This document shows, one piece after another, positions 155 through 63,749 of a stretch of 64,000 bases of DNA. Every line of letters starts with the position of its first letter. The stretch's first letter is position 1. The DNA is from a virus (lineage: Duplodnaviria; Caudoviricetes). Under the pieces are notes generated by a model. The model was not told the DNA's origin, searched no databases, and saw nothing but the letters and a program-made list of their open reading frames with translations. The position numbers and the translations under genes are program-made. The DNA is taken from IMG/VR virus record IMGVR_UViG_3300010163_000022, positions 658-64,657 of that record. The stretch is one strand, 5' to 3'.

Positions 155-991
155 ATGAATGATAATGAAAATTTGGCTATAAAAGAAGTAAATTTTTTAG
201 GTGATACTTTAGTTGCAGTAAAAGACAATCAAAGTAATATTTATGTAGGTGTAAGATGGATTTGTAATGGTATAGGATTATCTGAGGGGCAAAGAAAAAG
301 ACAAATATCAAATATTCAATCAGATTTAGTTTTGTCTAAAGGGGTATCAAATTTGATCCTCCCTACAAATGGCGGTAATCAAGAAGTGGTATGTTTATTA
401 TTAGATTATATCCCTTTATGGTTAGCTAAAATTAATATTACTCCAACTATGATGCAAGAAAATCCAAACCTAGTTACTAAGTTAATACAATATCAGTTAA
501 AGTGTAAAGATGTATTAGCTAATGCATTTCTATCTCAATTAAATTATCAATATAAATTACCAACAAATTATATAGAAGCTTTAGAACAGTTAGTAGTAGC
601 AGAAAAAGAAAAAGAACAATTAAAAATAGAAAATAAACAACAGCAAGAAAAAATAAAGCAAGATGCTTCTAAAGTTAGTTATTATGATATGATATTAAAA
701 AATAAAAGTTTATTATCTACAACTCAGATTGCTAAAGATTATGGTATGAGTGCTAGAAAATTTAATGAAATTCTTTATAAATTAAAAATTCAATTTAAGC
801 AAAGTGGACAATGGGTTCTATATAGTAATTATCAAAATAAAGGCTATGTTTCAAGTTATACTTTTACATTTGATGATAATAAATCTAAATTAATGACTAA
901 GTGGACTCAAAAAGGTAGAATATTTTTATATAATTTTCTTAAAGAAAATAAAATATTACCAACAATAGAACAAGAAGTTTTAAATTTTTAG
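155..991 (+). CDS. Phage antirepressor (P22 AR N-terminal-like + ANT/KilAC C-terminal domain)
   Basis: N-term EVNFLGDTLVAV...YVGVRWICNGIGL; C-term KVSYYDMIL...TTQIAKDYGMSA...WTQKGRIFLY; AGGAGG RBS. Confidence 0.9.
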   Translation: MNDNENLAIKEVNFLGDTLVAVKDNQSNIYVGVRWICNGIGLSEGQRKRQISNIQSDLVLSKGVSNLILPTNGGNQEVVCLLLDYIPLWLAKINITPTMMQENPNLVTKLIQYQLKCKDVLANAFLSQLNYQYKLPTNYIEALEQLVVAEKEKEQLKIENKQQQEKIKQDASKVSYYDMILKNKSLLSTTQIAKDYGMSARKFNEILYKLKIQFKQSGQWVLYSNYQNKGYVSSYTFTFDDNKSKLMTKWTQKGRIFLYNFLKENKILPTIEQEVLNF

Positions 992-4729: not shown

Positions 4730-6682
4730 ATGAGTAATACAGATTTTAATATTAAAATGAATTTAGATAAAGATTTTGTACATTTTTTAAAATTTTTATA
4801 TCAAAAGTATGATGAAAATTTAGCAAGAATTAATGGCTTTCATAATGAAAATCTTAATTTTACTGATTTTATTGATAATTTTATTGATAGTCAAACAGTA
4901 GCAGATGTTAGTCCAGATACAAATGCAAATAGTTCAACTAAAGATGTTAATACATTAATGTCAGATATGACAAAGCCCCATTCTAAATTATTATCTTATA
5001 ATAAAATTTTTTATGAATTAAAAAAGGCGTATGGATTAGAAATAGCAGAAGAATGGTTTGAAGATGAATATAATGGAGTTTTTTATCTTCATAATGCAGC
5101 AACTTCTACTTTTAAACCTTATTGTTTTGCTTATGATTTAGATGAGGTAGTAGAAAAAGGATTATTTTTTATTAATAAATTTAAATCTAAACCAGCTCAA
5201 CATTTAACAACATTTAATGACCATGTTTTAGAATTTATAAGTTGGAATTCAAATCGTACTTCTGGAGCTGTAGGTTTACCTTCATATTTAATTTATTCTT
5301 TTTATTTTTGGAAGAAAGATGTAGAAAATAATTTTTATTTAAAAAATCCAGAATATTATAGAAGACAATGCTTTCAAAAATTTATTTATGATTTAAACCA
5401 ACCTTATTTAAGAATTACTGAATGTGCTTTTACAAATATAACTATTATGGATAGAGAATATTTAGTTAGTATTTTTGGAGACAGAAAGTATCCTGATGGA
5501 ACTAATATTATAGATTATATTGAAGAGCTTATAGAATATCAAAAATGTTTTATGGAAGTAGTTTCAGAAATAAGAAAAGAACAGTTTATGACTTTTCCTG
5601 TTTTAACTTATTCTTTATTATATCAAAATAATAAATTTGTAGATGAAGAATTTGCTAAATGGTGTTGTAATCATAATAATTTATGGTATGATAGTAATTT
5701 TTATGTAGGTAATGATGTAGCTTCATTAAGTAATTGTTGTAGATTATTATCTGATACTAAAAAACTTAAAGGATTTATAAATTCTATTGGTGGAACTTCT
5801 TTGCAAATTGGCTCAGTACAAGTTAATACTATTAATTTACGACGTATAGCTTTAATTGCAGATATGTTATCTAGTGATAAAACTAAATCTGAAATAAAAT
5901 TTTATTTTATGTTTAATTTAAAGCAAAAAGTAGAATTATGTATAAAAGTTTTAAAAATAATTAGAAGAATTATTAAACGTAATGTTGAAAAAGGTTTGCT
6001 TCCTAATTATAGTTATGGTTTAATAAAATTAGAAAAACAATACTCTACAATAGGAATTACTGCAATGTATGAAGCTTTAAATGATTTAGGTATGATAGAA
6101 GAAGATGAATTTGGTAATAAATATTATACTAAAGAAGGATTAGAATTTGCATCAGATATTTTTTCTATAATTAATGAATGTATAGAAAATCAAAATGTAG
6201 ATTTTAGTTTTAATATAGAAGCAGTACCAGCAGAAAGAGCTAATGTAGTTTTATGCCAAAAAGATAATTTAATATATAAACCTAATAAAGAATATTTTAT
6301 TTACAGTAATCAATGGATACCTCTTCAGGAAAAATGTACATTAGATGAAAAAATAAAATTAGGTTCAATTTTAGATAAACAATGTGGAGGAGGTCAAATT
6401 AGTCATATTAATTTACAAGCTCCTTTTAATAATGATAAACAGTCTTGGGATTTATTAAATTATATAGCAAGTAAAGGCGTTATTTATTTTGCTTATAATG
6501 TAAAAACTTTTGTGTGCGAAGATGGTCATGGATTTTTTGGACAAATTTGTCCTAATTGTGGAAAACCAGTAGCAGATAGTTATTCTAGAGTAGTTGGATT
6601 TTTAACACCTGTTTCTTCTTATAGTAAAGAAAGAAGGCAGGAATTTAATAAAAGAAAGTGGTTTGATTTAAATGAGAATTAG
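4730..6682 (+). CDS. nrdD: Anaerobic (class III) ribonucleoside-triphosphate reductase, no ATP cone
   Basis: SNCCRL active site, C-terminal Zn ribbon CEDGH..CPNCG, glycyl-radical loop YSRVVGFL. Confidence 0.95.
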   Translation: MSNTDFNIKMNLDKDFVHFLKFLYQKYDENLARINGFHNENLNFTDFIDNFIDSQTVADVSPDTNANSSTKDVNTLMSDMTKPHSKLLSYNKIFYELKKAYGLEIAEEWFEDEYNGVFYLHNAATSTFKPYCFAYDLDEVVEKGLFFINKFKSKPAQHLTTFNDHVLEFISWNSNRTSGAVGLPSYLIYSFYFWKKDVENNFYLKNPEYYRRQCFQKFIYDLNQPYLRITECAFTNITIMDREYLVSIFGDRKYPDGTNIIDYIEELIEYQKCFMEVVSEIRKEQFMTFPVLTYSLLYQNNKFVDEEFAKWCCNHNNLWYDSNFYVGNDVASLSNCCRLLSDTKKLKGFINSIGGTSLQIGSVQVNTINLRRIALIADMLSSDKTKSEIKFYFMFNLKQKVELCIKVLKIIRRIIKRNVEKGLLPNYSYGLIKLEKQYSTIGITAMYEALNDLGMIEEDEFGNKYYTKEGLEFASDIFSIINECIENQNVDFSFNIEAVPAERANVVLCQKDNLIYKPNKEYFIYSNQWIPLQEKCTLDEKIKLGSILDKQCGGGQISHINLQAPFNNDKQSWDLLNYIASKGVIYFAYNVKTFVCEDGHGFFGQICPNCGKPVADSYSRVVGFLTPVSSYSKERRQEFNKRKWFDLNEN

Positions 6683-7208
6683 GACTGTTATGGATGAAAA
6701 TTATCAAGATTATAAAAAGCCTTCTATGTTAATAGCTACAGCTTTTTGTGATTGGAAATGTTGTATAGAAGGAGAATTTGATATGGAAATTTGTCAAAAT
6801 TATCATTTAGCTAAAGGTAAAATAGTTGATATAAGTAATGAAAAATTATTTAATAGATATAAAGCTAATAAATTAACTTCTGCAATTATATTAGGTGGAT
6901 TAGAGCCTTTTATGCAATTTAAAGAAATTTATGATTTTATAAAGTATGTTAGAGATAATAATTGTAATGATGATATTATTATTTATACAGGTTATAATTA
7001 TGATGAAATTCATAAAAAAATAGAAATTTTAAGAAGTTATAAAAATTTAATTGTAAAATTTGGAAGATATAAAATAAACGGAAGAAAAAAATATGATGAA
7101 ATGCTTGGCGTAGAATTAGTTTCTGAAAATCAATATGCTGCCAAAATTTTAACGTGGGAGGAGATAAAATCAATTGCAAAATCAAATAAAGAAAAAAGAA
7201 ATAGATGA
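6672..7208 (+). CDS. nrdG: Class III RNR activase (radical SAM)
   Basis: CDWKC..CQN cluster motif, LGGLEPF, YTGY, KFGRY; overlaps nrdD. Confidence 0.9.
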   Translation: MRIRTVMDENYQDYKKPSMLIATAFCDWKCCIEGEFDMEICQNYHLAKGKIVDISNEKLFNRYKANKLTSAIILGGLEPFMQFKEIYDFIKYVRDNNCNDDIIIYTGYNYDEIHKKIEILRSYKNLIVKFGRYKINGRKKYDEMLGVELVSENQYAAKILTWEEIKSIAKSNKEKRNR

Positions 7209-39157: not shown

Positions 39158-39775
39158 ATGAAAATATCTAATATTAGAGTTTATGGATTGCAAGAAAGTT
39201 TAATTGCTTCAGGATATCCTATGAAAAATAATAATCAAATTGAAAATTTAAGCAATAATATGGTTTTTGACTCAAAAGTAGATATAAAAAGAGGTGAAAG
39301 ACTAGCAAATACAAAGATAGGAGAAGGTCACGATAATTTTTTAAATGGTATTATAGTTCAATTTGATTTGAAAACAAATTTAAAATTTTGGCCACAACTC
39401 CAACGTTATCATTTTGTTGATTTTGTTAGTAGCCAATCTATAATGCATACTGTAGAGAAAATTAATTTTAAAAAAGCTGAAAATTATTTTAATAAATATA
39501 TAAGTTATTCAAAAATTTGTGAACTAGAAGAAAAAAGACAAAAATATTTATTAGCTAAAGAAGAAAATAATAAAGATTTAATTGAAGAAGCTTTTAATGA
39601 TTTAGTATATAATATTCCATTAGGATTTGAATATACTGCAAGATTAACTACTAATTATCGTCAATTAAAAACAATTTATAATCAAAGAAAAAATCATAAA
39701 TTAAAAGAATGGAGAGACTTTTGTAAGTCATTAAAAGATTTACCTATGTCTAATCTTTTTATTATTGAAAATTAA
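39158..39775 (+). CDS. Divergent ThyX-fold (flavin-dependent thymidylate synthase-like) protein
   Basis: GHDNFL.GI.VQFDL..QLQRYHFVDFVSSQS; NIPLG..TNYRQLKTIYNQRKNHKL.EWR.FC mirrors the ThyX layout but lacks RHR. Confidence 0.55.
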   Translation: MKISNIRVYGLQESLIASGYPMKNNNQIENLSNNMVFDSKVDIKRGERLANTKIGEGHDNFLNGIIVQFDLKTNLKFWPQLQRYHFVDFVSSQSIMHTVEKINFKKAENYFNKYISYSKICELEEKRQKYLLAKEENNKDLIEEAFNDLVYNIPLGFEYTARLTTNYRQLKTIYNQRKNHKLKEWRDFCKSLKDLPMSNLFIIEN

Positions 39776-46134: not shown

Positions 46135-47019
46135 TTATAAATAACAAACTAATGAACAATATAATCTGTGTTTATTTTCTTCTTCGTTTTGTGCTTTTTT
46201 AACTATTCTTTGGCTTCTTTTGTATGTACTAACAATTAACTTATTATTTTCTAAATGTAAATCTTCAAGCATCTCTTGCAAAGTATATTCTTTTCTATTA
46301 TCAATAAAATCAACAAATGCTAACATATCATTTAATCCTAATATTTCAATTTCTTCTTCTTCATTTGCTGCTTTTTCAACTATAGCTGCTGTTAATAAAA
46401 TCCACGCTTCAATTTCTTTTATATCTGTTGTTCCTTGATGTTTTCTAAATTCTATTGTTCCATGCTTAATATAACTTTTTATATTTAAACTTCTATATCT
46501 TTCTCTTACACCTTGTGCTAAAAATCCAATATTATGACTTTCTTTTCTTAATTCTTTCATATCTTTATTAATCTCTACTGTATCAGCTAAAATATCTTGG
46601 CAATAATAACTATCTTCATATCTTCTAGGATTTATTATACTTCTAATTGCATTAAACTCATACTTTGCATATAAATTGAATAATCTTTGTACTTGAAAAT
46701 TATCAAAATCTCTAATATCATGATGTACATGAAAACCAGCTTTTTTTCCGCCGTGTGCTTTAATTTGTTTTCTTAAAATCTCAACAACTTTTTCTAATTC
46801 ATCAAAATCTTCTAAAACAGGACTTACTACTTCCCATCCGCATTTATCTAAACTACCATCAGGAACTATTTTCCAACTATCAATTAAATCTGGGCTATTG
46901 TGGTCATAATTAAATTCACAATTAATACCTGCTGCTTTGATTAAATCTACTGCTTTTCTAGGGTCAACTTTTGTCATAACTTCTAATTCTACTCCAAATC
47001 TCATTTTTCTTGTCTTCAT
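46135..47019 (-). CDS. Putative amidoligase (Amidoligase_2 / COOH-NH2 ligase type 2)
   Basis: RFGVELEV, WKIVPDGSL, WEVVSPVL, GFHVH, RYRSLN, GTIEFRKH. Confidence 0.9.
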   Translation of the reverse strand: MKTRKMRFGVELEVMTKVDPRKAVDLIKAAGINCEFNYDHNSPDLIDSWKIVPDGSLDKCGWEVVSPVLEDFDELEKVVEILRKQIKAHGGKKAGFHVHHDIRDFDNFQVQRLFNLYAKYEFNAIRSIINPRRYEDSYYCQDILADTVEINKDMKELRKESHNIGFLAQGVRERYRSLNIKSYIKHGTIEFRKHQGTTDIKEIEAWILLTAAIVEKAANEEEEIEILGLNDMLAFVDFIDNRKEYTLQEMLEDLHLENNKLIVSTYKRSQRIVKKAQNEEENKHRLYCSLVCYL

Positions 47020-49185: not shown

Positions 49186-49548
49186 TTAATAATTATTTTT
49201 TTGTCTATCATAATTAATTTGATGTTTCTTTTTATATCTTTCTAATATTTCATCTTTTGTCATTCCTAAAGCTCCTGCAACATTCATAACAAAATGAAGA
49301 ACATCAATAAATTCATCTTTAGCTAAATCATATTGCTTATCAAAATCATAATTTTCTTTATCATATTTCTTGGACCAAGGTTTAATATAAGGAATTTCTC
49401 TTCCACATTCATGCAATTCTTCAGTAGCAAAATATAATTGGCCTCTAATATAATTAGCTAAATCTTTTTTTGTCATATTTTCTAAATTATAACCTAAACT
49501 TTCTTGAAATTCCAAACATTCTTTTAAAATATACTCTAAACTATCCAT
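49186..49548 (-). CDS. All-alpha (dimeric dUTPase/MazG-like) dNTP pyrophosphatase
   Basis: EELHE..E, EFIDVLHF, YKKKHQINYDRQ. Confidence 0.85.
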   Translation of the reverse strand: MDSLEYILKECLEFQESLGYNLENMTKKDLANYIRGQLYFATEELHECGREIPYIKPWSKKYDKENYDFDKQYDLAKDEFIDVLHFVMNVAGALGMTKDEILERYKKKHQINYDRQKNNY

Positions 49549-49630: not shown

Positions 49631-52054
49631 TTATTTATCTAATTTATTTTTATCTATAAAAACTTCTATTTTTTCAAAATTATAATTCCCTATTTTGTAA
49701 GTTGTATGATTATATAAACTACCTATTTTTCGTGGTATAAATTGGTCATTTTTTCTATATCCTACTATAACTATTTTTGTACCTCTTTCAAACCAAGAAA
49801 TATCTAATATTATTTTTTCTTTATCTTTTATTTCTACAATTTTTTCATCATAATAATTATATAAAGCTTTAGAATAATTAACAACAACTAATCCATATTG
49901 AGTAAGAAGATATATTAAATGTTTACTTTTATTTTTTTCTACTACTGTTCCACCAATTAAATCTACTTTTATTTTTGGTCTTTTAGAGCTATAATCTTTA
50001 ATTGGTTCTTCAGGTAAATTATAAAAATTAGATAATTCAAAATAATTTTTTATAGGCATTAAATCAAATTCGTGTTTATCTGAGTAAAATAATAATGTTT
50101 CAATTTCCCACGACTCTTTTGTTCCTTTACAATTTTCTTGCCAAAATTTATTTTTTATTATTTTGTTATATAAATCTATAGCCTCTTGAGAATTTATATA
50201 TTGTAATAATTTTACTATACTTTTCTTGTAAAATCTGTCAAATTTTGTACTGTCTATAATTAATTTATTATTTTTAAAACTATAATCTACATCTTTAGAA
50301 TATTTTTCAATAAATTCTTTTTCTAATTCTTCATTTATTTCAATTTTATTTCTGCCAAAAACTTTATTTCTAAAATTATATATTTTTAATTCTTCTTCAA
50401 ATTTTTCTTTATCTATATAATTTATAATAATAGGTAGTTGAACCATTGTTATTTTTTTCTTATTTTCTACTGCATAATTTACAAAGTCTATCATTATTTT
50501 TTTTCTATCTTTATTAAAACAATCAAAACATCCAGCTTTAATTAAACTTATAATTTGTTTATTAGATATTTTTACTTTATTTAAAAAATCATTAAAACCA
50601 CTAAAAGGACGTAATTGCAATATTAAATTTATTGCATCATTACTTAAACCAATAATAGGCTTTAATCCAAATAAAATTTGATTAGTTTCTTCTAAAGGAG
50701 TAAATCCTAATTCAGATATATTTATATCAGGATTTTTTATAACCCCTTTCATATCTCCAACTGCTTTAGCTAATGCTCCATAATTAGTTCCATTAATATT
50801 ATCTTCAGATAAGCCAGAATTAACTGCTAAACATGCAGTTTGCCAATAAATTGTTCCATATCTATAACAAATATTCATTTCAATCATTAAAATTAATGTA
50901 TACCCAGTAGTATGTGGATTAGAAAATGAATAACTAAAAGAAGGTTTAAAACAATTATCCCATACATAGTCTAAAAATATTTTTCTAGCTCCTAAACTTA
51001 AGCCTTTTTTAATATATTTATTATATTCTACTTCTAATTCTTTCTTATTTTGCTTAGCTATTAATTTTCGATATTTATTTGCTTCTGTTAAATTATAATT
51101 AGATATATTTTTATCCATTATTACTTTCATTATTAATTCTTGAGAGTCACAAATACCATAATTTTTTAATAAAAGATTTTTTAAAACATCTATCTCTTTT
51201 TGATTTAATCCATAATCTTTCATTTCTTTAAACCATAAATCTATATTTTTTTTATATCTAATAAATTTATCTAAGGGCTGTTCTCCTTCACAATTTAATC
51301 TCATTAAGTTATTTCCAATACATAATTCATCAAAAGTTCTTGCATTAAGTTTTTTCAAAGCTTGTTGTCCTATTGGAGTAGTATATTGAAAAGCATCCAA
51401 TACTTTTCCTTCATATAACAAATCAAACATCTCTTGAGCATTCATCTCTAAAATATCAGGATGAAAATAATTATTATAAGTTTTTCTTAAAGACTCTTTC
51501 CATTGTATTTTATTATATTTTAATAATAAATTTAAAGCTTCTTTAATTCTCTGTAATGCATTTATAGATAAAAAATCTAATTTTAACCCACCCATATATT
51601 CAGTATCTACAGCATCAAATTGAGTTATAGCTAAATTAGAAGTAGTAGTCATCATTGCATTTTGTTTAATATAACTATTATTAAAAATAATCACTGCTGA
51701 AGCATGCTGCCCACGCCCAGATACTAATCCTTCAATAGCTAACATAGTTTCTTTTAAATTATCATATTTTTCTACAATATTAATAAAATCTTTCGCTGGC
51801 TTTTTACCTTTTTCTTCATTTCCATAAAAACATTCTTTTAAAGTCCATATTCCACCTTTTTCTACTGGAATTAATTTAGATAAATTTTGAGCAATATCAG
51901 TATCTATTTTTAATCCTCTACAAGAAGTTAATACTGCTGATCTTGCACCTTCTGTAGTAAAAGTTCCAACATTAAGAACATTATTTTTTCCATATTTTTG
52001 TTTTACTAATTCTAATATTTCTAATCTTTTACTTCCTTCTGTGTCAATATCAAT
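49631..52054 (-). CDS. dnaE: DNA polymerase III alpha subunit, exon 2
   Basis: Begins IDIDTEG, completing the PDIDID motif; HASAVI, KLDFLS, SFSNPH..Y, NPDINIS, FGLKPI.GL. Confidence 0.93.
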   Translation of the reverse strand: MDIDTEGSKRLEILELVKQKYGKNNVLNVGTFTTEGARSAVLTSCRGLKIDTDIAQNLSKLIPVEKGGIWTLKECFYGNEEKGKKPAKDFINIVEKYDNLKETMLAIEGLVSGRGQHASAVIIFNNSYIKQNAMMTTTSNLAITQFDAVDTEYMGGLKLDFLSINALQRIKEALNLLLKYNKIQWKESLRKTYNNYFHPDILEMNAQEMFDLLYEGKVLDAFQYTTPIGQQALKKLNARTFDELCIGNNLMRLNCEGEQPLDKFIRYKKNIDLWFKEMKDYGLNQKEIDVLKNLLLKNYGICDSQELIMKVIMDKNISNYNLTEANKYRKLIAKQNKKELEVEYNKYIKKGLSLGARKIFLDYVWDNCFKPSFSYSFSNPHTTGYTLILMIEMNICYRYGTIYWQTACLAVNSGLSEDNINGTNYGALAKAVGDMKGVIKNPDINISELGFTPLEETNQILFGLKPIIGLSNDAINLILQLRPFSGFNDFLNKVKISNKQIISLIKAGCFDCFNKDRKKIMIDFVNYAVENKKKITMVQLPIIINYIDKEKFEEELKIYNFRNKVFGRNKIEINEELEKEFIEKYSKDVDYSFKNNKLIIDSTKFDRFYKKSIVKLLQYINSQEAIDLYNKIIKNKFWQENCKGTKESWEIETLLFYSDKHEFDLMPIKNYFELSNFYNLPEEPIKDYSSKRPKIKVDLIGGTVVEKNKSKHLIYLLTQYGLVVVNYSKALYNYYDEKIVEIKDKEKIILDISWFERGTKIVIVGYRKNDQFIPRKIGSLYNHTTYKIGNYNFEKIEVFIDKNKLDK

Positions 52055-53066
52055 CACACTACTTAATTTTTAAAAATAGTGCGGACTATATCATAGTCTT
52101 CAGCTTAATCTGTTCAGACTCCATGCGCTTCGAATATAGCCATACAAAACTATATCCTATCTACTCAGCTAATTATTTAATTTATAATTGCTTTTCGTTA
52201 GTCTCTTCACATTTATTTAAATCATCTTTTAATATCCAATAAATTCCATTAAGTTTTTCAAATCCAGAAATTTTATATTGTTTTGGCTTTTTATATCCTA
52301 TATTTGCAGTTTTATAGTTATTAATAAGATATTGAATTAATTCAGATTTCGTATCAAATTCTATAAAAGAGCTATCTCTTAAATATAAAATACAAGCTTT
52401 AGCTTTTGGATTATTTTTTCCTTTTAATAATCCATTCTTCTTTTTTAAATCAGACAATTTTTTCTTTTTTTCTTCAGACCATTTATTATTATAATTAGGA
52501 TTATTTTTACCTTTATATCTTCCTTTCATTTTTAAAGATAAATTTTGTTTTTGAATATCTGTCCAATAATTTTGATAATTAGGATTATTTTTTCCATAAT
52601 TACAAAATTCTTTACAACAATAATTTTCCCCTAATTTATAATAATATTGCTGATAATAAACTTCTTTTTTTCTTACTTCATTAATATTATCTGACTCAAA
52701 TAAAATTATAACTTCAACATTTTCTATTCCTATTTTTGATACTTCTTCTTTCCACAAATTTGAACGAATTTTAAAATCAAACTCTCTTTTATTTTTAGAA
52801 TATTTACCACCAATATAAAAAATTTTATTATTTATTTTATTTTTATGAGCATATACATAAAATTTTTTAATTTTTATTCCTCCTAAGGAATTAAAAGATA
52901 ATTTAAAATTTAGCACAGCGATTGTCTTTTTATTTTAAAGATTTTCCCTGTTAGCAAAAGCATTAACTAATCATTTCCTATTAGAAACTAACGCTGCTTT
53001 CACACCGATTGTTAATCGTTCACATGGTTATTCGATAATCATTTCTGATTAAAGGGACGTTATTTC
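52055..53066 (-). mobile_element. Group I self-splicing intron (1012 nt) in dnaE
   Basis: Exon ends ...CCGGAU with IGS GUCC (U-G at the splice site); R-like GAAGAGACUA, S-like GAUAUAGUCC (P7), P3 GCUAA/UUAGC, P9 GCACUA/UAGUGU; terminal G; joining restores ERPTMPD|IDID. Confidence 0.92.
52182..52871 (-). CDS. Intron-encoded GIY-YIG homing endonuclease with NUMOD3 repeats
   Basis: FYVY..FYIG..R..E; three GKNNP repeats; 3' end overlaps the intron R element; likely ATT start at 52871 (the track's GTG 52916 lies in the intron core). Confidence 0.85.
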   Translation of the reverse strand: MKKFYVYAHKNKINNKIFYIGGKYSKNKREFDFKIRSNLWKEEVSKIGIENVEVIILFESDNINEVRKKEVYYQQYYYKLGENYCCKEFCNYGKNNPNYQNYWTDIQKQNLSLKMKGRYKGKNNPNYNNKWSEEKKKKLSDLKKKNGLLKGKNNPKAKACILYLRDSSFIEFDTKSELIQYLINNYKTANIGYKKPKQYKISGFEKLNGIYWILKDDLNKCEETNEKQL

Positions 53067-54407
53067 ATCCGGCATTGTAGGACGTTCTTCAGATAAAAAT
53101 CTCCAATAAGGTAAATCATATTTCAAAGGATTAACTTGAACTATATCTAAAAGATAATTAGTATAATAACAAGCTGCTGAACCTCTACTAGGACCTACTA
53201 AAGAAACTTTCCACATTAAATCTATAATCTCTTTTGTTAATACAAAATAAGATGATAAATTTTGATTTAATTTTTCAGAAATATTATAAATAGTTTTTAA
53301 CTCTAAATTAATTCTTGATAAATTTTCATCATTTAATTCTTCATTTTTTTCAATCATTCCATTAGCTATTAAATGTAAATAATATTTATTAATTTTTTCT
53401 TCACTATTAGCAAATATTTTTAAATATTTATATTTCTCATAATATGGACTAAATAAATTATTTAATTTAAATTCTGGTATATAAGCATTAGGAATTTGTA
53501 TATTTTGTTTAAAATCTATATCTTCTAATTTATTTTTAATTTCTAAAGTATTATTACATAATTCATCTAATAATTTACTATCAAAATAATTATTTAATTC
53601 TTTTTTACTCATAATATAAGTTGTTTTATAAAATTCTTGTACTTCTCTTTCTCCTTCGTCTGATTTTAAATAAATTTCATGAATTTTAGCTTGACTTTTA
53701 TTAAGATAATGAGCATCAGTTGTTACTATACATTTAATATTAAATTTTTTACTTATATTATAAAGTAATTTATTAGCTTTATCTTGATTACTTCCTTTAT
53801 CATTAGGTTGTAATTCTATATAAAAATTATTTTCAAATAAACTTTTACACCATTTTAAAAATTCTTCAGCTTCTTCATTTTTATTTTCTAATAATAAAGT
53901 AGGTAATTCTCCTCCTAAACAAGCAGTTGAAGCAATTAAATCTCCTTTATATTCTTTAGCTATTTTTTCTAAATTATGCTTATATGTTGGAACTCTTTGC
54001 ATACCTTTATAGTAAAAATTATTTTCCCAAGCTAATGAACTTAATTTTTTTAAAGCTTCATATCCTCTACTGTTTTTTGCTACTAATATAAAATGATAAA
54101 AAAGTATTTTTTCATTTAATTCTTTGAGTTTATTTACTTTATTTATATCTACTAAATATATCTCATTACCAAATCCTAATTTAAAATCTTTATCTATTAT
54201 ACCTGCTTCTTGTTGTTTTTTAAGATAATTTTGAGCTTTTATATGAGAGCTTAAACATTCGTGTTCAGTTAATATTAATCCATTTAGTCCTACTTCATAA
54301 GAATAGTTTATTAAATCTTCTATTTTATTAATTGAGTCTCGTAATCTAAAATTTGAAAAACAGCTATGACAATGAACTTCAAACCATGTATTCATTTTAT
54401 TTATCAT
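53067..54407 (-). CDS. dnaE: DNA polymerase III alpha subunit, exon 1 (PHP domain)
   Basis: HCHS, LTEHE, GNEIY, HFILVAKN, TTDAHY, GPSRGSA, RFLSEER; spliced product 1254 aa. Confidence 0.93.
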
Positions 54408-56452: not shown

Positions 56453-56480
56453 TTTATATCTGTTTCATTTTAAGTGTAAA
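56453..56480 (-). promoter_or_regulatory. Conserved phage promoter (TTTACA-16 bp-TATAAA)
   Basis: Minus: TTTACA cttaaaatgaaacaga TATAAA. Confidence 0.8.
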
Positions 56481-56490
56481 TTAAAATTAT

Positions 56491-57864
56491 TTATTTAGTT
56501 ATTTTAATTATTTTTTTACCAGTTAATCCTCCATACATACTAATCATATCTTTAGCTAAACCTCTTGGACACATAGGAAGTAAATTATTAGAATTATATA
56601 ACTTTATAAATTCATTTGTTAAAAGTTGATTTTGGGTTAAATAAAAAACTAAATCTTTTAAATTTTGAAACTTTTCATTATCTTTATTAATTAAAAATAA
56701 TTGATTAAATAAATCTGGTAATACAATATTAGTATCATATTCATTTTTTAAAACTTCAAAAGCGGTTTGTCTATATAAAGTTTGTAATTCTTTACTTTTA
56801 GATATTTCTTTAAGCTGATTAATCATTGTATCTGGGTTATCTTCATCATAAATTACTGCAAAATTATCTATAGTAATATAACTTTTACCTTCTTTAGTTC
56901 TACATCTTTGAGCCCACTGCTTATTAACTATTAAAATTGAACCAGCCAAAATTGCTTCTTGCATAGTATATTCCATTCTATCGCCATAAAAAGATTGTTC
57001 TATATCAGAGCTAAATTTAAAAGGAACCCATGCAAACATATAATTACTAAAAATATCTATTACTTGGCTATTTGCTATTCTAGGATAAGTATCTACAATA
57101 GGATTTTCATTTCTAGGAAGATTTTTTTGTAATAAATTGTTACAATTTTTATGATTTAAAATATTATGTTTACAACCCATAGATGTATCCATTCCATATA
57201 TATAGCAATTAAATCCATTATCTTTTAATTTTTCAGATAAATCTAATAATTTTTTAGGACCTTTATATAAAACAAATCTACCTATATATACAATTGAATT
57301 TTCTTTCTTTATTTCAAAATCTCTTTTTTTATTAATATCAATCCATAAATGCATAGGATAACATTTATCCTTTTTTGATGGTAAAGCTTGAGCTATTTCT
57401 TTTATATAATAACTTTTAGCAGAATGATTATATATAGCATCAGAAAAATTAAGATATGCCCATAAATAAGGAGTCTCATTAATAGCTTTTAAAAAAGAAG
57501 TATGTTGCATTTGAATTTTAATAGGCTTTAAATCTTTATACATTTCAAAAAAAGCTTTTATATCTTCTGCTTTTAAACCTGAATGCATTTTTGGAAAATT
57601 TAATAAAATTATTAAATCATATTTATTTAATTCATTTTTAATATTTTCTATTTGAGTATAATTAAAAATTTTATATTTATGTTGATATTTATCTTTATAA
57701 GTTGGTTCATTTCTTTTCCAAATAGGATGATAATAATAAGTCACAATTTCTAAATCATTTTTTAAACTCCAATTATACATTTCTTCTACTGATGTACTTT
57801 CTCCATCAATCATTCTAGGATAGCCTCTTAATATTGCAATTTTTCTATTTTTATATAAATTCAT
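56491..57864 (-). CDS. agt: DNA alpha-glucosyltransferase homologue (T4 Agt family, GT-B fold)
   Basis: Collinear motifs vs T4 Agt recalled from memory: NWSLKN/DWFIKN, YDLIILLNFP/CDILIINSVP, QHTS/QHDH, AIYNHS/VIFSHS, YIGR..YKG/WIGR..WKG, MEYT..EA..G/LEYT..EL..G, IYDEDN/WFDEND. Confidence 0.85.
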   Translation of the reverse strand: MNLYKNRKIAILRGYPRMIDGESTSVEEMYNWSLKNDLEIVTYYYHPIWKRNEPTYKDKYQHKYKIFNYTQIENIKNELNKYDLIILLNFPKMHSGLKAEDIKAFFEMYKDLKPIKIQMQHTSFLKAINETPYLWAYLNFSDAIYNHSAKSYYIKEIAQALPSKKDKCYPMHLWIDINKKRDFEIKKENSIVYIGRFVLYKGPKKLLDLSEKLKDNGFNCYIYGMDTSMGCKHNILNHKNCNNLLQKNLPRNENPIVDTYPRIANSQVIDIFSNYMFAWVPFKFSSDIEQSFYGDRMEYTMQEAILAGSILIVNKQWAQRCRTKEGKSYITIDNFAVIYDEDNPDTMINQLKEISKSKELQTLYRQTAFEVLKNEYDTNIVLPDLFNQLFLINKDNEKFQNLKDLVFYLTQNQLLTNEFIKLYNSNNLLPMCPRGLAKDMISMYGGLTGKKIIKITK

Positions 57865-57967: not shown

Positions 57968-58654
57968 TTAAATATCGCTTTCTTTTGCTAGCTTATCTAT
58001 TTTATTGCAAAGATTTAATATTTTTTCAATTTTTTTTGAATTAAATTCTTTTGATAAATCAGTTTTCATATTATTATCTATAGCTTCAATATTTTTTTGA
58101 TAATCAAGATATTTTTCAATTTTTTTATCTAATTCATTTATTCTATTAATTGTATCTAAAAAAATATCATTAATTTCGTGAGTAGAATTACCTAAATTTA
58201 TCTCATTAGAAGTATATAAATATACAGAAATTACATCAGCCATTTTAACTAATAAATATATAAAAGGTTCAGTATCTTTAAAATTATCTAATTCTGAATA
58301 AACTTCATAATATTCTGGTAAATTATTTTTTATATAATTTAATTCTGCTTTTCTTAATATATCTCTTAGCTCTTGATTATCTCTTTTAAAATCATATGAT
58401 AAATCATTAGAAACTAATTCTGGAATATCATGAACGATAATATATTCTATAGCTCTTTGTCTTATTTTTCTATCAATTTTATAATAATCACAAATTTTAA
58501 ATAAACTCGCTGCAGCAATAAACGTATGAGTAGCTACTGACTCATTTTTAATTTTAGGACGATTATTATATCTAATCATTTCTCCAAGTGATAAAATTCT
58601 AGTATCATCAAATATTTGCAAAAATTTATCAAGTTTTTTATTATCTATTGACAT
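57968..58654 (-). CDS. HD-domain (deoxy)nucleotide phosphohydrolase, YfbR/DatZ-like
   Basis: IRYNN..ESVATHTF, IIVHDIPE..D, VKMAD. Confidence 0.88.
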   Translation of the reverse strand: MSIDNKKLDKFLQIFDDTRILSLGEMIRYNNRPKIKNESVATHTFIAAASLFKICDYYKIDRKIRQRAIEYIIVHDIPELVSNDLSYDFKRDNQELRDILRKAELNYIKNNLPEYYEVYSELDNFKDTEPFIYLLVKMADVISVYLYTSNEINLGNSTHEINDIFLDTINRINELDKKIEKYLDYQKNIEAIDNNMKTDLSKEFNSKKIEKILNLCNKIDKLAKESDI

Positions 58655-59100
58655 TATTCAATTTCTCCTTTCCATTTTTTATATTCTTTTTCTAATAAAG
58701 CATCATAAAGTTCTTGATATGTTACACAAATTGCTATTGCACTTTCAGCTAACATTAAATTAAATTGAGAAGTATTTTTTAAATTTTCACAAAAATAAAT
58801 AATAGGTTTATTATTAGCATAAGCATAACCAGCTTCAAATATGGTACCTGTATCTATTTTACCTTTATCACCATTAGAAGTATTTACTAAAATAATATCG
58901 CAATCTAAAATTGATACTAAATTCTTATTTAAAGTTTCTTTTCTTTGCTTTTGAGTTGCATTTGGTAAACAACAAGTTTCTTTTCTAGGTGAAAATACTT
59001 CATAGCCACATTCTTCAATAATTTGTTCTAAATTTTGAACTTGATCTAAATGTAAAGGACAAAACCAACCACTTGCTAAATAAATCTTTTTTTTGCTCAT
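58654..59100 (-). CDS. Nucleoside 2-deoxyribosyltransferase / N-glycosidase family protein
   Basis: KIYLASGWF, EVFSP, DTGTIFEAGYAYA..KPII, FNLML. Confidence 0.9.
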   Translation of the reverse strand: MSKKKIYLASGWFCPLHLDQVQNLEQIIEECGYEVFSPRKETCCLPNATQKQRKETLNKNLVSILDCDIILVNTSNGDKGKIDTGTIFEAGYAYANNKPIIYFCENLKNTSQFNLMLAESAIAICVTYQELYDALLEKEYKKWKGEIE

Positions 59101-62894: not shown

Positions 62895-63749
62895 TTATTT
62901 ACTTCTTTCTATTAATGGCAAAATATTATCTTCTTTTAATAAATTATAAATGAATTTTCGTCCTTTTTGAGTCCAATATGTGTTAATTGTAGAATGATTA
63001 ACATCTTGAATATCTGAATAAAAATAAGTTTTAGTTCCTGTATAACCTTTTTCAGCATATTTTTGATACAATATCCAAGTTCTATTTCTTTTAAATTGAA
63101 CATTCTTTTTATTAAGATACTTATTTAACCAAATAGCTGATTTTCCATAATCTTTAACTATAATAGAAATTGGAACTAAATCTTTACAATTTAATATTAC
63201 ATCATAATAACTAGCTTTAGGTTTCATTTCTTCAATTTGTTGATTTTGAACAATTATAGTATCTGTAAGTTTTTCATTTTTTTCTACTTGTTCTAATAAC
63301 TGTTTTAATGCATCTTTATAAGTCATTGGTAATTTAGGTTGTATTTGTATCTGTTCTCTCATAACAAAATATTCATCTAATAGTTTATCATAAATATCCC
63401 ACGCTAAATCTGTATCAAATATTTTTATAAGCTTTGCGTAACCACGTCTTGAGAATATAAATATATGTTCGGCTTGTGTTATGGATTGTTTTGCATAGTC
63501 TAAACTTAGTAACAATTCCAACGTGGTAATCTCGTTACCACCTTTTTTTAAATCTATAAAATCAATATTTTCTTTAAAGTGGTCAATATTTCTTAAAACT
63601 GATTTTCTTACTTCTCTCATTTCAAAATTGTGCAATTCTACTACTGTTTTATCTGATATACATTTTTGATTTTCTCCAAATCCACCGTATATTATAGGTA
63701 TTTCTTTATTCATAAAAATTTGATTACCATTTATTTTCAATTCTTCCAT
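62895..63749 (-). CDS. ORF6N-domain antirepressor with an ANT/KilAC C-terminus
   Basis: GGFGENQKCISDK..ELH..RN..HF.ENIDF; KASYYDVIL..WTQKGRKFIY. Confidence 0.9.
   Translation of the reverse strand: MEELKINGNQIFMNKEIPIIYGGFGENQKCISDKTVVELHNFEMREVRKSVLRNIDHFKENIDFIDLKKGGNEITTLELLLSLDYAKQSITQAEHIFIFSRRGYAKLIKIFDTDLAWDIYDKLLDEYFVMREQIQIQPKLPMTYKDALKQLLEQVEKNEKLTDTIIVQNQQIEEMKPKASYYDVILNCKDLVPISIIVKDYGKSAIWLNKYLNKKNVQFKRNRTWILYQKYAEKGYTGTKTYFYSDIQDVNHSTINTYWTQKGRKFIYNLLKEDNILPLIERSK

Follow-up and report, generated by a model that had tools for sequence, protein, structure and literature searches.

Which base does a relative of the phage T4 alpha-glucosyltransferase (Agt) decorate when it is encoded by a phage of Gram-positive bacteria that carries none of the enzymes expected to make its acceptor? 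Sugar-decorated bases allow phages to escape from restriction enzymes and CRISPR, cause trouble for sequencing and are a source of DNA-labelling enzymes, and to our knowledge Agt-type enzymes have been characterised only from T-even phages of E. coli, where their substrate is 5-hydroxymethylcytosine (hmC). The gene analysed here, which we refer to as GT, lies in a stretch of 64,000 nucleotides (the window; positions 658 to 64,657 of the IMG/VR virus record IMGVR_UViG_3300010163_000022) that makes up nearly all of a 64,657-bp record, about 73% complete and with a G+C content of 22%. We find that its product is a GT-B glycosyltransferase and a genuine relative of T4 Agt, and we predict that it acts as a DNA glycosyltransferase on a C5-oxygenated cytosine of the phage DNA, a reading that we consider likely. 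Taken alone, GT is a further member of a known family. The novelty lies in GT together with its partner genes: the Agt family now appears in Gram-positive phages without an hmC-making enzyme, beside two atypical pyrimidine-modifying proteins.

GT is an open reading frame (ORF) of 457 amino acids that starts with ATG, with the ribosome-binding site GAGGAGG lying 7 nt 5' of the start codon, and its boundaries are exactly those given by the sequence-only reading, which had proposed a full-length homologue of T4 Agt in a putative Firmicutes phage. Residues 5-393 match positions 2-420 of the 421 in PHROG 2888 ('alpha-glucosyltransferase'; E = 1.5e-45), and in a phmmer search T4 Agt (1xv5) was the only significant sequence match in the PDB (E = 4e-6, residues 28-386 on T4 residues 23-396), the two proteins being 18% identical. 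When an AlphaFold model of GT, built on 22 homologues with a predicted local distance difference test (pLDDT) score of 92, was compared with known structures by Foldseek, ranks 1-9 were all taken by T4 AGT chains (E = 4e-22 to 1e-19), the next family, of GT4 type, following at 2e-11 or weaker. Structural alignment using VIA-align likewise placed T4 Agt at the top (Z 33.3-34.5, root-mean-square deviation 2.3-3.2 A over 352-373 residues; Z 34.5 over 366), while TarM, PimA and HepE reached Z 23.9, ten Z units below. Because T4 Agt ranks first, cell-wall GT4 enzymes are not the best structural matches of GT, and the proposed homology is borne out over the whole length of the T4 enzyme, which we take to belong to CAZy family GT72; the family assignment is secure.

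The family is small: when 1.84 billion representative proteins were searched with a profile, 211 matched, and the close clade of GT comprises 22 clusters. Every Agt-family context that we examined was a phage contig. Among 50,697 GenBank phage records, matches were confined to Geobacillus phage GR1, whose 'glycosyltransferase' UDY80704.1 (OK896991.1) is 56% identical to GT over its full length, and to phage G, whose gp306 and gp313, both annotated as alpha-glucosyltransferases, belong to the same long-form subfamily (29% identity over 97% of the length). The annotation of the GR1 protein is generic, and a literature search under the phage name GR1 returned nothing; this phage is in culture.

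To see which parts of the enzyme are conserved, 154 family members were aligned with T4 Agt. The near-invariant residues of the GT family (G21, D83, D142, R196, K201, G224, F277, E298 and E303) correspond in the same order to T4 G15, D76, D135, R204, K209, G233, F289, E306 and E311, and those of the donor site (G21, R196, K201, E298 and E303) are 94-99% conserved. The motifs listed by the sequence-only reading were recovered, namely QH (Q120 H121, equivalent to T4 Q113 H114), NHS (H147 S148, T4 H140 S141), IGR..KG (G195, R196 and K201, T4 G203, R204 and K209), EYT..E (E298 and E303) and DED (D340, T4 D349). In T4 Agt, G15 and R204 contact the beta-phosphate and E311 the ribose of the donor, while H114, H116 and H140 touch the glucose (Thomas et al. 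2018, PMC6024577, citing Lariviere 2005). The first and last of these histidines are kept in GT, as H121 and H147, and H116 is replaced by S123. Together with the exchange of T4 D115 for Thr, this turns QHDH into QHTS, a change that had been noticed correctly and that we find to be specific to the GR1-like clade, other Agt groups having QHDH or MHE[IL] at this site. Moreover, five members of the clade (P0009-P0013) have lost all three glucose-contacting histidines. Judged from these residues, the site for the uridine diphosphate (UDP) donor is intact and the sugar pocket altered, which bears on sugar specificity and not on the fold, and the loss of H116 here and of all three histidines in some relatives supports the earlier suggestion that the donor or the acceptor may differ from those of T4.

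Beyond the part aligned with T4 lies a C-terminal extension of 65 amino acids (approximately residues 392-457), which is confidently modelled as two helices and a hairpin. This extension, remarked upon before, is real and is not peculiar to GT, since 63 of the 154 family members have at least 40 extra C-terminal residues, both phage G copies among them. GT thus has in common with T4 Agt (PDB 1xv5, 1y6f, 1y8z) the GT-B fold, the UDP-binding residues, H114 and H140 and a site among replication genes, whereas the T4 enzyme has no such extension, keeps D115 and H116, is less basic (isoelectric point 6.1 versus 9.0 for GT) and comes from a phage of E. coli rather than of a low-GC Gram-positive host.

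Another difference is that the gp42-type hydroxymethylase, which makes hmC in T4, is absent from the record of this phage. The sequence-only reading had taken it that Agt needs a hydroxymethyl-pyrimidine already in DNA. We surveyed the partners of the family at 77 loci from the phage-G-like Agt clades and from more remote ones. A ThyA homologue lies within 10 kb at 54 of them, and all 54 homologues carry L143D, C146, R166, S167, D169 and N177D, the signature of the gp42 deoxycytidine monophosphate (dCMP) hydroxymethylase; D169N occurs in none. A gp42-type ThyA homologue is also present at the phage G locus, with D169 kept and with a thymidylate kinase and sugar-nucleotide genes nearby (the phage G transferases themselves have MHE[IL] at the QHDH site), and at the locus of a Logan contig, L015. 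In contrast, neither this record (73% complete) nor the complete genomes of GR1 and of a second relative, G001, contain ThyA (PF00303). C5 DNA methyltransferase (PF00145) is missing from both this record and GR1, and TET/JBP (PF12851) gave no match in either, or in any control genome, which makes the TET/JBP search uninformative. The hydroxymethyl premise is therefore supported in part: the rest of the family travels with a gp42-type hydroxymethylase wherever a ThyA homologue is nearby, whereas in this phage and its complete close relatives no such enzyme is found, and a D169N substitution suggests that the acceptor may be 5-hydroxycytosine (5hoC) instead. As a separate observation, the residue at T4 D115 showed no clean link with the type of ThyA partner: one relative, P0025, has QHEP at this site yet sits in a GR1-type context.

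The D169N substitution is found in a truncated ThyA-fold protein of 149 amino acids (miniThyA), which the GR1-like clade always carries in place of the gp42-type enzyme. Alignment with ThyA by MAFFT and hhalign equates Cys87 of miniThyA with C146, its QRS with Q165-S167, Asn110 with D169, Asp117 with N177 and His144 with H207. Foldseek matches of its model (E = 5e-4 to 1e-3) include thymidylate synthases and the dCMP hydroxylase of phage HY126 (9iqc/9iqu; E = 1e-3), and VIA-align gave T4 dCMP hydroxymethylase at Z 7.1 and 9iqc at Z 6.5; MilA is matched as well. The miniThyA profile found no match among PDB sequences, and nothing useful came from the ESM Atlas. The kinship of miniThyA with ThyA rests on these motifs, on the hhalign match over the catalytic core (E = 5e-4, probability 31%) and on weak fold matches. 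Homologues of ThyA that carry D169N synthesise 5-hydroxy-dCMP with the help of flavin and O2, and trios of kinase, glycosyltransferase and synthase mark glycosyl-5hoC clusters (Lee et al. 2026, PMC13326640). A trio of a kinase, a glycosyltransferase and a putative D169N/N177D ThyA-fold protein is shared between the glycosyl-5hoC systems of RB69, DLP3, RL38JI and HY126 (PMC13326640) and this phage, where GT, a small kinase, a divergent ThyX-like flavoprotein and miniThyA are encoded within 3.4 kb; the kinase resembles RB69 gp45 in the P-loop only. Because the sole ThyA-fold protein carries D169N, the acceptor may be 5hoC, and because miniThyA also has N177D, cytosine is indicated rather than uracil. 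As for which oxygenated cytosine it is, we tentatively put 5hoC first, by a narrow margin over hmC. An acceptor of 5hoC, if true, would give the Agt family a second substrate.

We infer that the acceptor is DNA, that the base is cytosine and which kind of sugar is attached, and the pathway that we envisage is as follows. The ThyX-like flavoprotein and/or miniThyA would produce a modified cytosine at the nucleotide level and the small kinase would act next, while an HD-type hydrolase, a nucleoside 2-deoxyribosyltransferase (NDT) and a MazG-like protein encoded nearby would plausibly trim the normal nucleotide pool. After replication, GT would bind duplex phage DNA and, as a retaining enzyme (alpha linkage), join a hexose taken from a UDP-sugar of the host to an oxygen on the C5 substituent of the modified cytosine; the glycosylated base would protect the phage DNA against nucleases of the host. 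The logic predicted for this phage, in which dCMP is modified first and the sugar is added on DNA, is that of the known glycosyl-5hoC systems. The transferases of those systems are accompanied by sugar-activation genes; in the window ORFs that were scanned we saw no such genes (nucleotidyltransferase, sugar kinase), which makes the sugar probably glucose or another common UDP-hexose. Taken together, GR1-like phages probably possess a sugar-decorated DNA base that arises by an undescribed route.

Several findings weigh against a DNA glycosyltransferase acting on a C5-oxygenated cytosine, or against 5hoC in particular. A Pfam scan of GT left PF11440 (AGT) unreported at E values up to 10, and the nearest non-DNA structural neighbour of the protein is TarM, a teichoic-acid transferase. 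The published 5hoC glycosyltransferases are GT4-like (related to MshA, PimA and BshA), whereas GT is Agt-like. Their synthases are full-length, with 217-240 amino acids, and miniThyA, with 149, is about 90 residues shorter; compared with ThyA, about 100 residues are missing from it, the E58 region among them. The miniThyA model is also weak (pLDDT 58), with ThyA-type matches at Z 6-7 interleaved with unrelated folds. In addition, a remote mini-ThyA-like ORF on another contig (L064) keeps D169 and adjoins an ordinary hydroxymethylase, an arrangement suggesting that proteins of the mini-ThyA type may be accessories and not the base-modifying enzyme. Finally, the 5hoC route needs O2, yet this phage encodes an anaerobic ribonucleotide reductase (NrdD/NrdG).

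The alternative that survives best differs in the base: the acceptor would be hmC, its hydroxymethyl group set by the ThyX-like flavoprotein, possibly with the aid of miniThyA, and GT would make alpha-glycosyl-hmC. This would constitute a new, possibly ThyX-based, synthesis of hmC. Such a route would be independent of O2, which fits the anaerobic reductase, and it would agree with the partnership of the family with dCMP hydroxymethylases at all ThyA-bearing loci of our survey, as well as in phage G and L015. The ThyX-like protein itself matches solved ThyX structures at E = 0.19 only, and its family has R111, R113, C121, R174 and R201 as invariants, so that the substrate-binding arginines are kept while Cys121 is invariant where the ThyX motif RHR-X7-S has its Ser. 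It is less likely to be a plain thymidylate synthase because a 98% complete relative (G002) encodes a canonical ThyA (L143, D169, N177) besides the ThyX-like gene. One relative encodes FolD, which supplies methylene-tetrahydrofolate, and in three relatives the ThyX-like and miniThyA genes share a one-base overlap. However, we know of no ThyX-type hydroxymethylase, so that such an activity would be without known precedent, and a search of the literature on ThyX combined with phage hydroxymethylation found nothing relevant. Furthermore, the arginines that bind deoxyuridine monophosphate (dUMP) are kept, so that the ThyX-like protein could be an ordinary divergent thymidylate synthase, and the D169N of miniThyA points away from folate chemistry. 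In light of this, glycosylation of hmC by such a route appears possible and rather doubtful. A related scheme, which we put forward with similar reserve, is that miniThyA and the Cys-bearing ThyX-like flavoprotein might jointly replace the classical ThyA-type enzyme, possibly without O2, with an Agt of altered pocket adding a sugar that is perhaps not glucose.

Departing further from our reading of GT as a DNA-modifying enzyme, the acceptor could be something other than DNA, of host or phage origin: a protein, wall teichoic acid or a small molecule resembling a nucleoside, for example. After T4 Agt, the closest structures to GT are TarM, PimA, BshA and other GT4 enzymes (Z 20-24), and its sole Pfam match is a weak Glycos_transf_1, so that Pfam alone could not decide the family; PF11440 is faint or weak in the precomputed matches of the relatives P0022 and P0025. 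TarM (4x7r), the wall teichoic acid alpha-GlcNAc transferase of S. aureus, is likewise a retaining GT-B enzyme, but it has an extra inserted domain (493 amino acids) and is encoded by a chromosomal cell-wall gene. The complete relative G001 (IMG/VR, 84.6 kb, with terminal repeats) manages without the enzyme, since it keeps every neighbour of GT and has no GT anywhere in its genome, which argues that GT is an add-on to the nucleotide module. Under our main reading, this parallels T4, in which glucosylation is dispensable and hmC synthesis is not. Against a non-DNA acceptor stand the ten Z units by which T4 Agt leads the other structures, the small size of the family and its confinement to phage contigs, the tight tie of the rest of the family to dCMP hydroxymethylases and the fixed place of GT in a replication and nucleotide block, not among lysogeny or lysis genes, and we regard such an acceptor as unlikely.

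That GT would form a base-J-like glycosyl-hydroxymethyluracil (hmU), with the ThyX-like enzyme hydroxymethylating dUMP and the HD and NDT proteins purging thymidine nucleotides, draws on the crystallisation of T4 Agt with hmU DNA (according to the titles of 1y8z and 1y6g), on the binding of dUMP by the ThyX scaffold and on the resemblance of the HD 5'-deoxynucleotidase and NDT-like proteins to the activities by which hmU phages of the SPO1/SP8 type purge thymidine monophosphate, but appears very improbable, because GR1 encodes a thymidine kinase and G002 a canonical thymidylate synthase, so that thymine is probably kept, because position 177 of the ThyA-fold partner is occupied by Asp, as in the cytosine-type enzymes, and because hydroxymethylases of the dUMP type (Asn177) accompany none of the family members that we examined.

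The favoured reading, glycosylation of a C5-oxygenated cytosine, also draws on the genes around GT. Up to about 39.8 kb the genes of the window lie on the plus strand, those for replication coming before those for structure and lysis; beyond that point they lie on the minus strand and serve replication and nucleotide metabolism, and GT closes an NDT-HD-GT unit within this second arm. The features of this region are listed below.

Table. Position of GT, its neighbours and promoter-like sites in the window.
Feature	Position	Strand	Matches or remarks
MazG-like nucleoside triphosphate pyrophosphohydrolase, candidate dUTPase/dCTPase	49186..49548	-	phrog_173 E 5.5e-14; phrog_18650 'dUTPase'; PF08761 E 1e-7
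miniThyA, truncated ThyA-fold protein, 149 aa	54514..54963	-	C146, R166, S167 kept; D169N, N177D
Divergent ThyX-like flavoprotein, 325 aa	54984..55961	-	PF02511 E 8.6e-16
P-loop nucleotide kinase, thymidylate-kinase-like, 148 aa	55981..56427	-	phrog_761 E 4e-12; weak PF02223
Promoter-like site of the same TTTACA-N16-TATAA family, past the GT stop and ahead of the kinase	56454..56480	-	
GT, Agt-family GT-B glycosyltransferase	56491..57864	-	PHROG 2888, 1xv5, Foldseek, VIA-align
HD nucleotide phosphohydrolase (YfbR/OxsA-like), adjoining GT upstream	57968..58654	-	PF12917 E 2.5e-13; PDB 2cqz, 1xx7
NDT family protein, first gene of the unit	58654..59100	-	PF05014 E 9e-19; PDB 6evs E 8e-8
Promoter-like TTTACA-N16-TATAA	59149..59175	-	upstream of the NDT-HD-GT unit

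The HD protein also matches phrog_7076 ('dATP triphosphohydrolase'; E = 3e-28) and is like phosphohydrolases of the OxsA/PH0347 type, while the NDT protein is like bacterial N-deoxyribosyltransferases. The order RecJ, NDT, HD, GT, kinase, ThyX-like, miniThyA, DnaE is conserved in GR1, in two Bacillus-group contigs (one each from Bacillus wiedmannii and Priestia megaterium) and in five contigs of metagenomic origin (IMG/VR or Logan); NDT is syntenic with GT in all relatives, as is the kinase, at one fixed place. The motif TTTACA-N16-TATAA occurs at 10 sites in the window, compared with 0.72 expected, and at none between the site ahead of the NDT gene and the start of GT. These sites span window positions 1394-61030, and in nine of the ten the spacer ends in GA; those nine precede genes of the early, replication or nucleotide-metabolism classes. 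A generic sigma-70 scan around GT, by comparison, returned 55 sites against 50 expected, which is uninformative in such AT-rich DNA, and found no terminators there.

The relatives of this phage agree with the Firmicutes host proposed by the sequence-only reading: its kin are Geobacillus phage GR1 and the contigs in B. wiedmannii and P. megaterium assemblies, and its NrdD is nearest to those of Clostridium phages (46% identity with phage c-st), an NrdG-like activase also being present (window 4730-7208, plus strand). Since the phage carries NrdD and NrdG with best matches in Clostridium phages, the host may be anaerobic; tRNA genes, looked for as a further clue to the host, were not found. GR1 shares the RecJ-like, NDT, HD, kinase, ThyX-like, 149-aa and DnaE neighbours and differs in having an aerobic thermophile as its host, a class Ia ribonucleotide reductase and a nitroreductase-like gene in the block, and a flavodoxin.

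In G001, the slot of GT between the HD gene and the kinase (L020 3898-5700) is occupied by an ORF of 262 amino acids that matches phrog_33243 and has weak endonuclease similarity. A homing-endonuclease-like (NUMOD3) ORF was seen within the polymerase region of the window, at 52182-52916, where it lies between two parts of the DnaE-type polymerase (window 49631-54407, minus strand), one of 452 amino acids (53049-54407) and one of 808 (49631-52057); in GR1 and other relatives the polymerase is a single gene of about 1263 amino acids. The replication arm further contains an Amidoligase_2 (PF12224) gene at 46135-47019 (minus strand), whose GR1 counterpart is followed by a gamma-glutamylcyclotransferase. 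A second, weaker ThyX-like ORF of 205 amino acids (39158-39775, plus strand; PF02511 at 27.9 bits, phrog_6721 E = 2e-50), with RYH for RHR, closes the late/lysis arm on the plus strand; in GR1, PF02511 has a single match.

Three contigs carry further arrangements of Agt-like genes. In L016 (2813-7345), NDT-HD-GT is followed by ORFs of 351 and 346 amino acids that match opposite halves of PHROG 2888 (one N-terminal, the other C-terminal) and could represent a second Agt-like transferase, split or duplicated. The L015 contig (5586-9129) encodes in a row a ThyA homologue of the dCMP hydroxymethylase type, a GT-A transferase resembling TAGT and an Agt-like transferase of the long form (33% identical to GT), which is the enzyme set of T2/T6; the RecJ gene of this phage is GR1-like. 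The cluster at L064 1-6700 comprises a gp42-type hydroxymethylase, a mini-ThyA-like ORF of 180 amino acids (RR, DCIS, RSSD and SLH motifs), a fused nucleotidyltransferase and APH-type kinase, a protein of 460 amino acids, an Agt-like transferase and a C5 DNA methyltransferase. At the ends of the record of this phage, which IMG/VR labels as having inverted terminal repeats, paralogous Ant-like anti-repressor genes point inwards (155-991, plus strand; 62895-63749, minus strand), and the only long inverted repeat in the window pairs 872-970 with 62907-63005 (99 nt, 74%).

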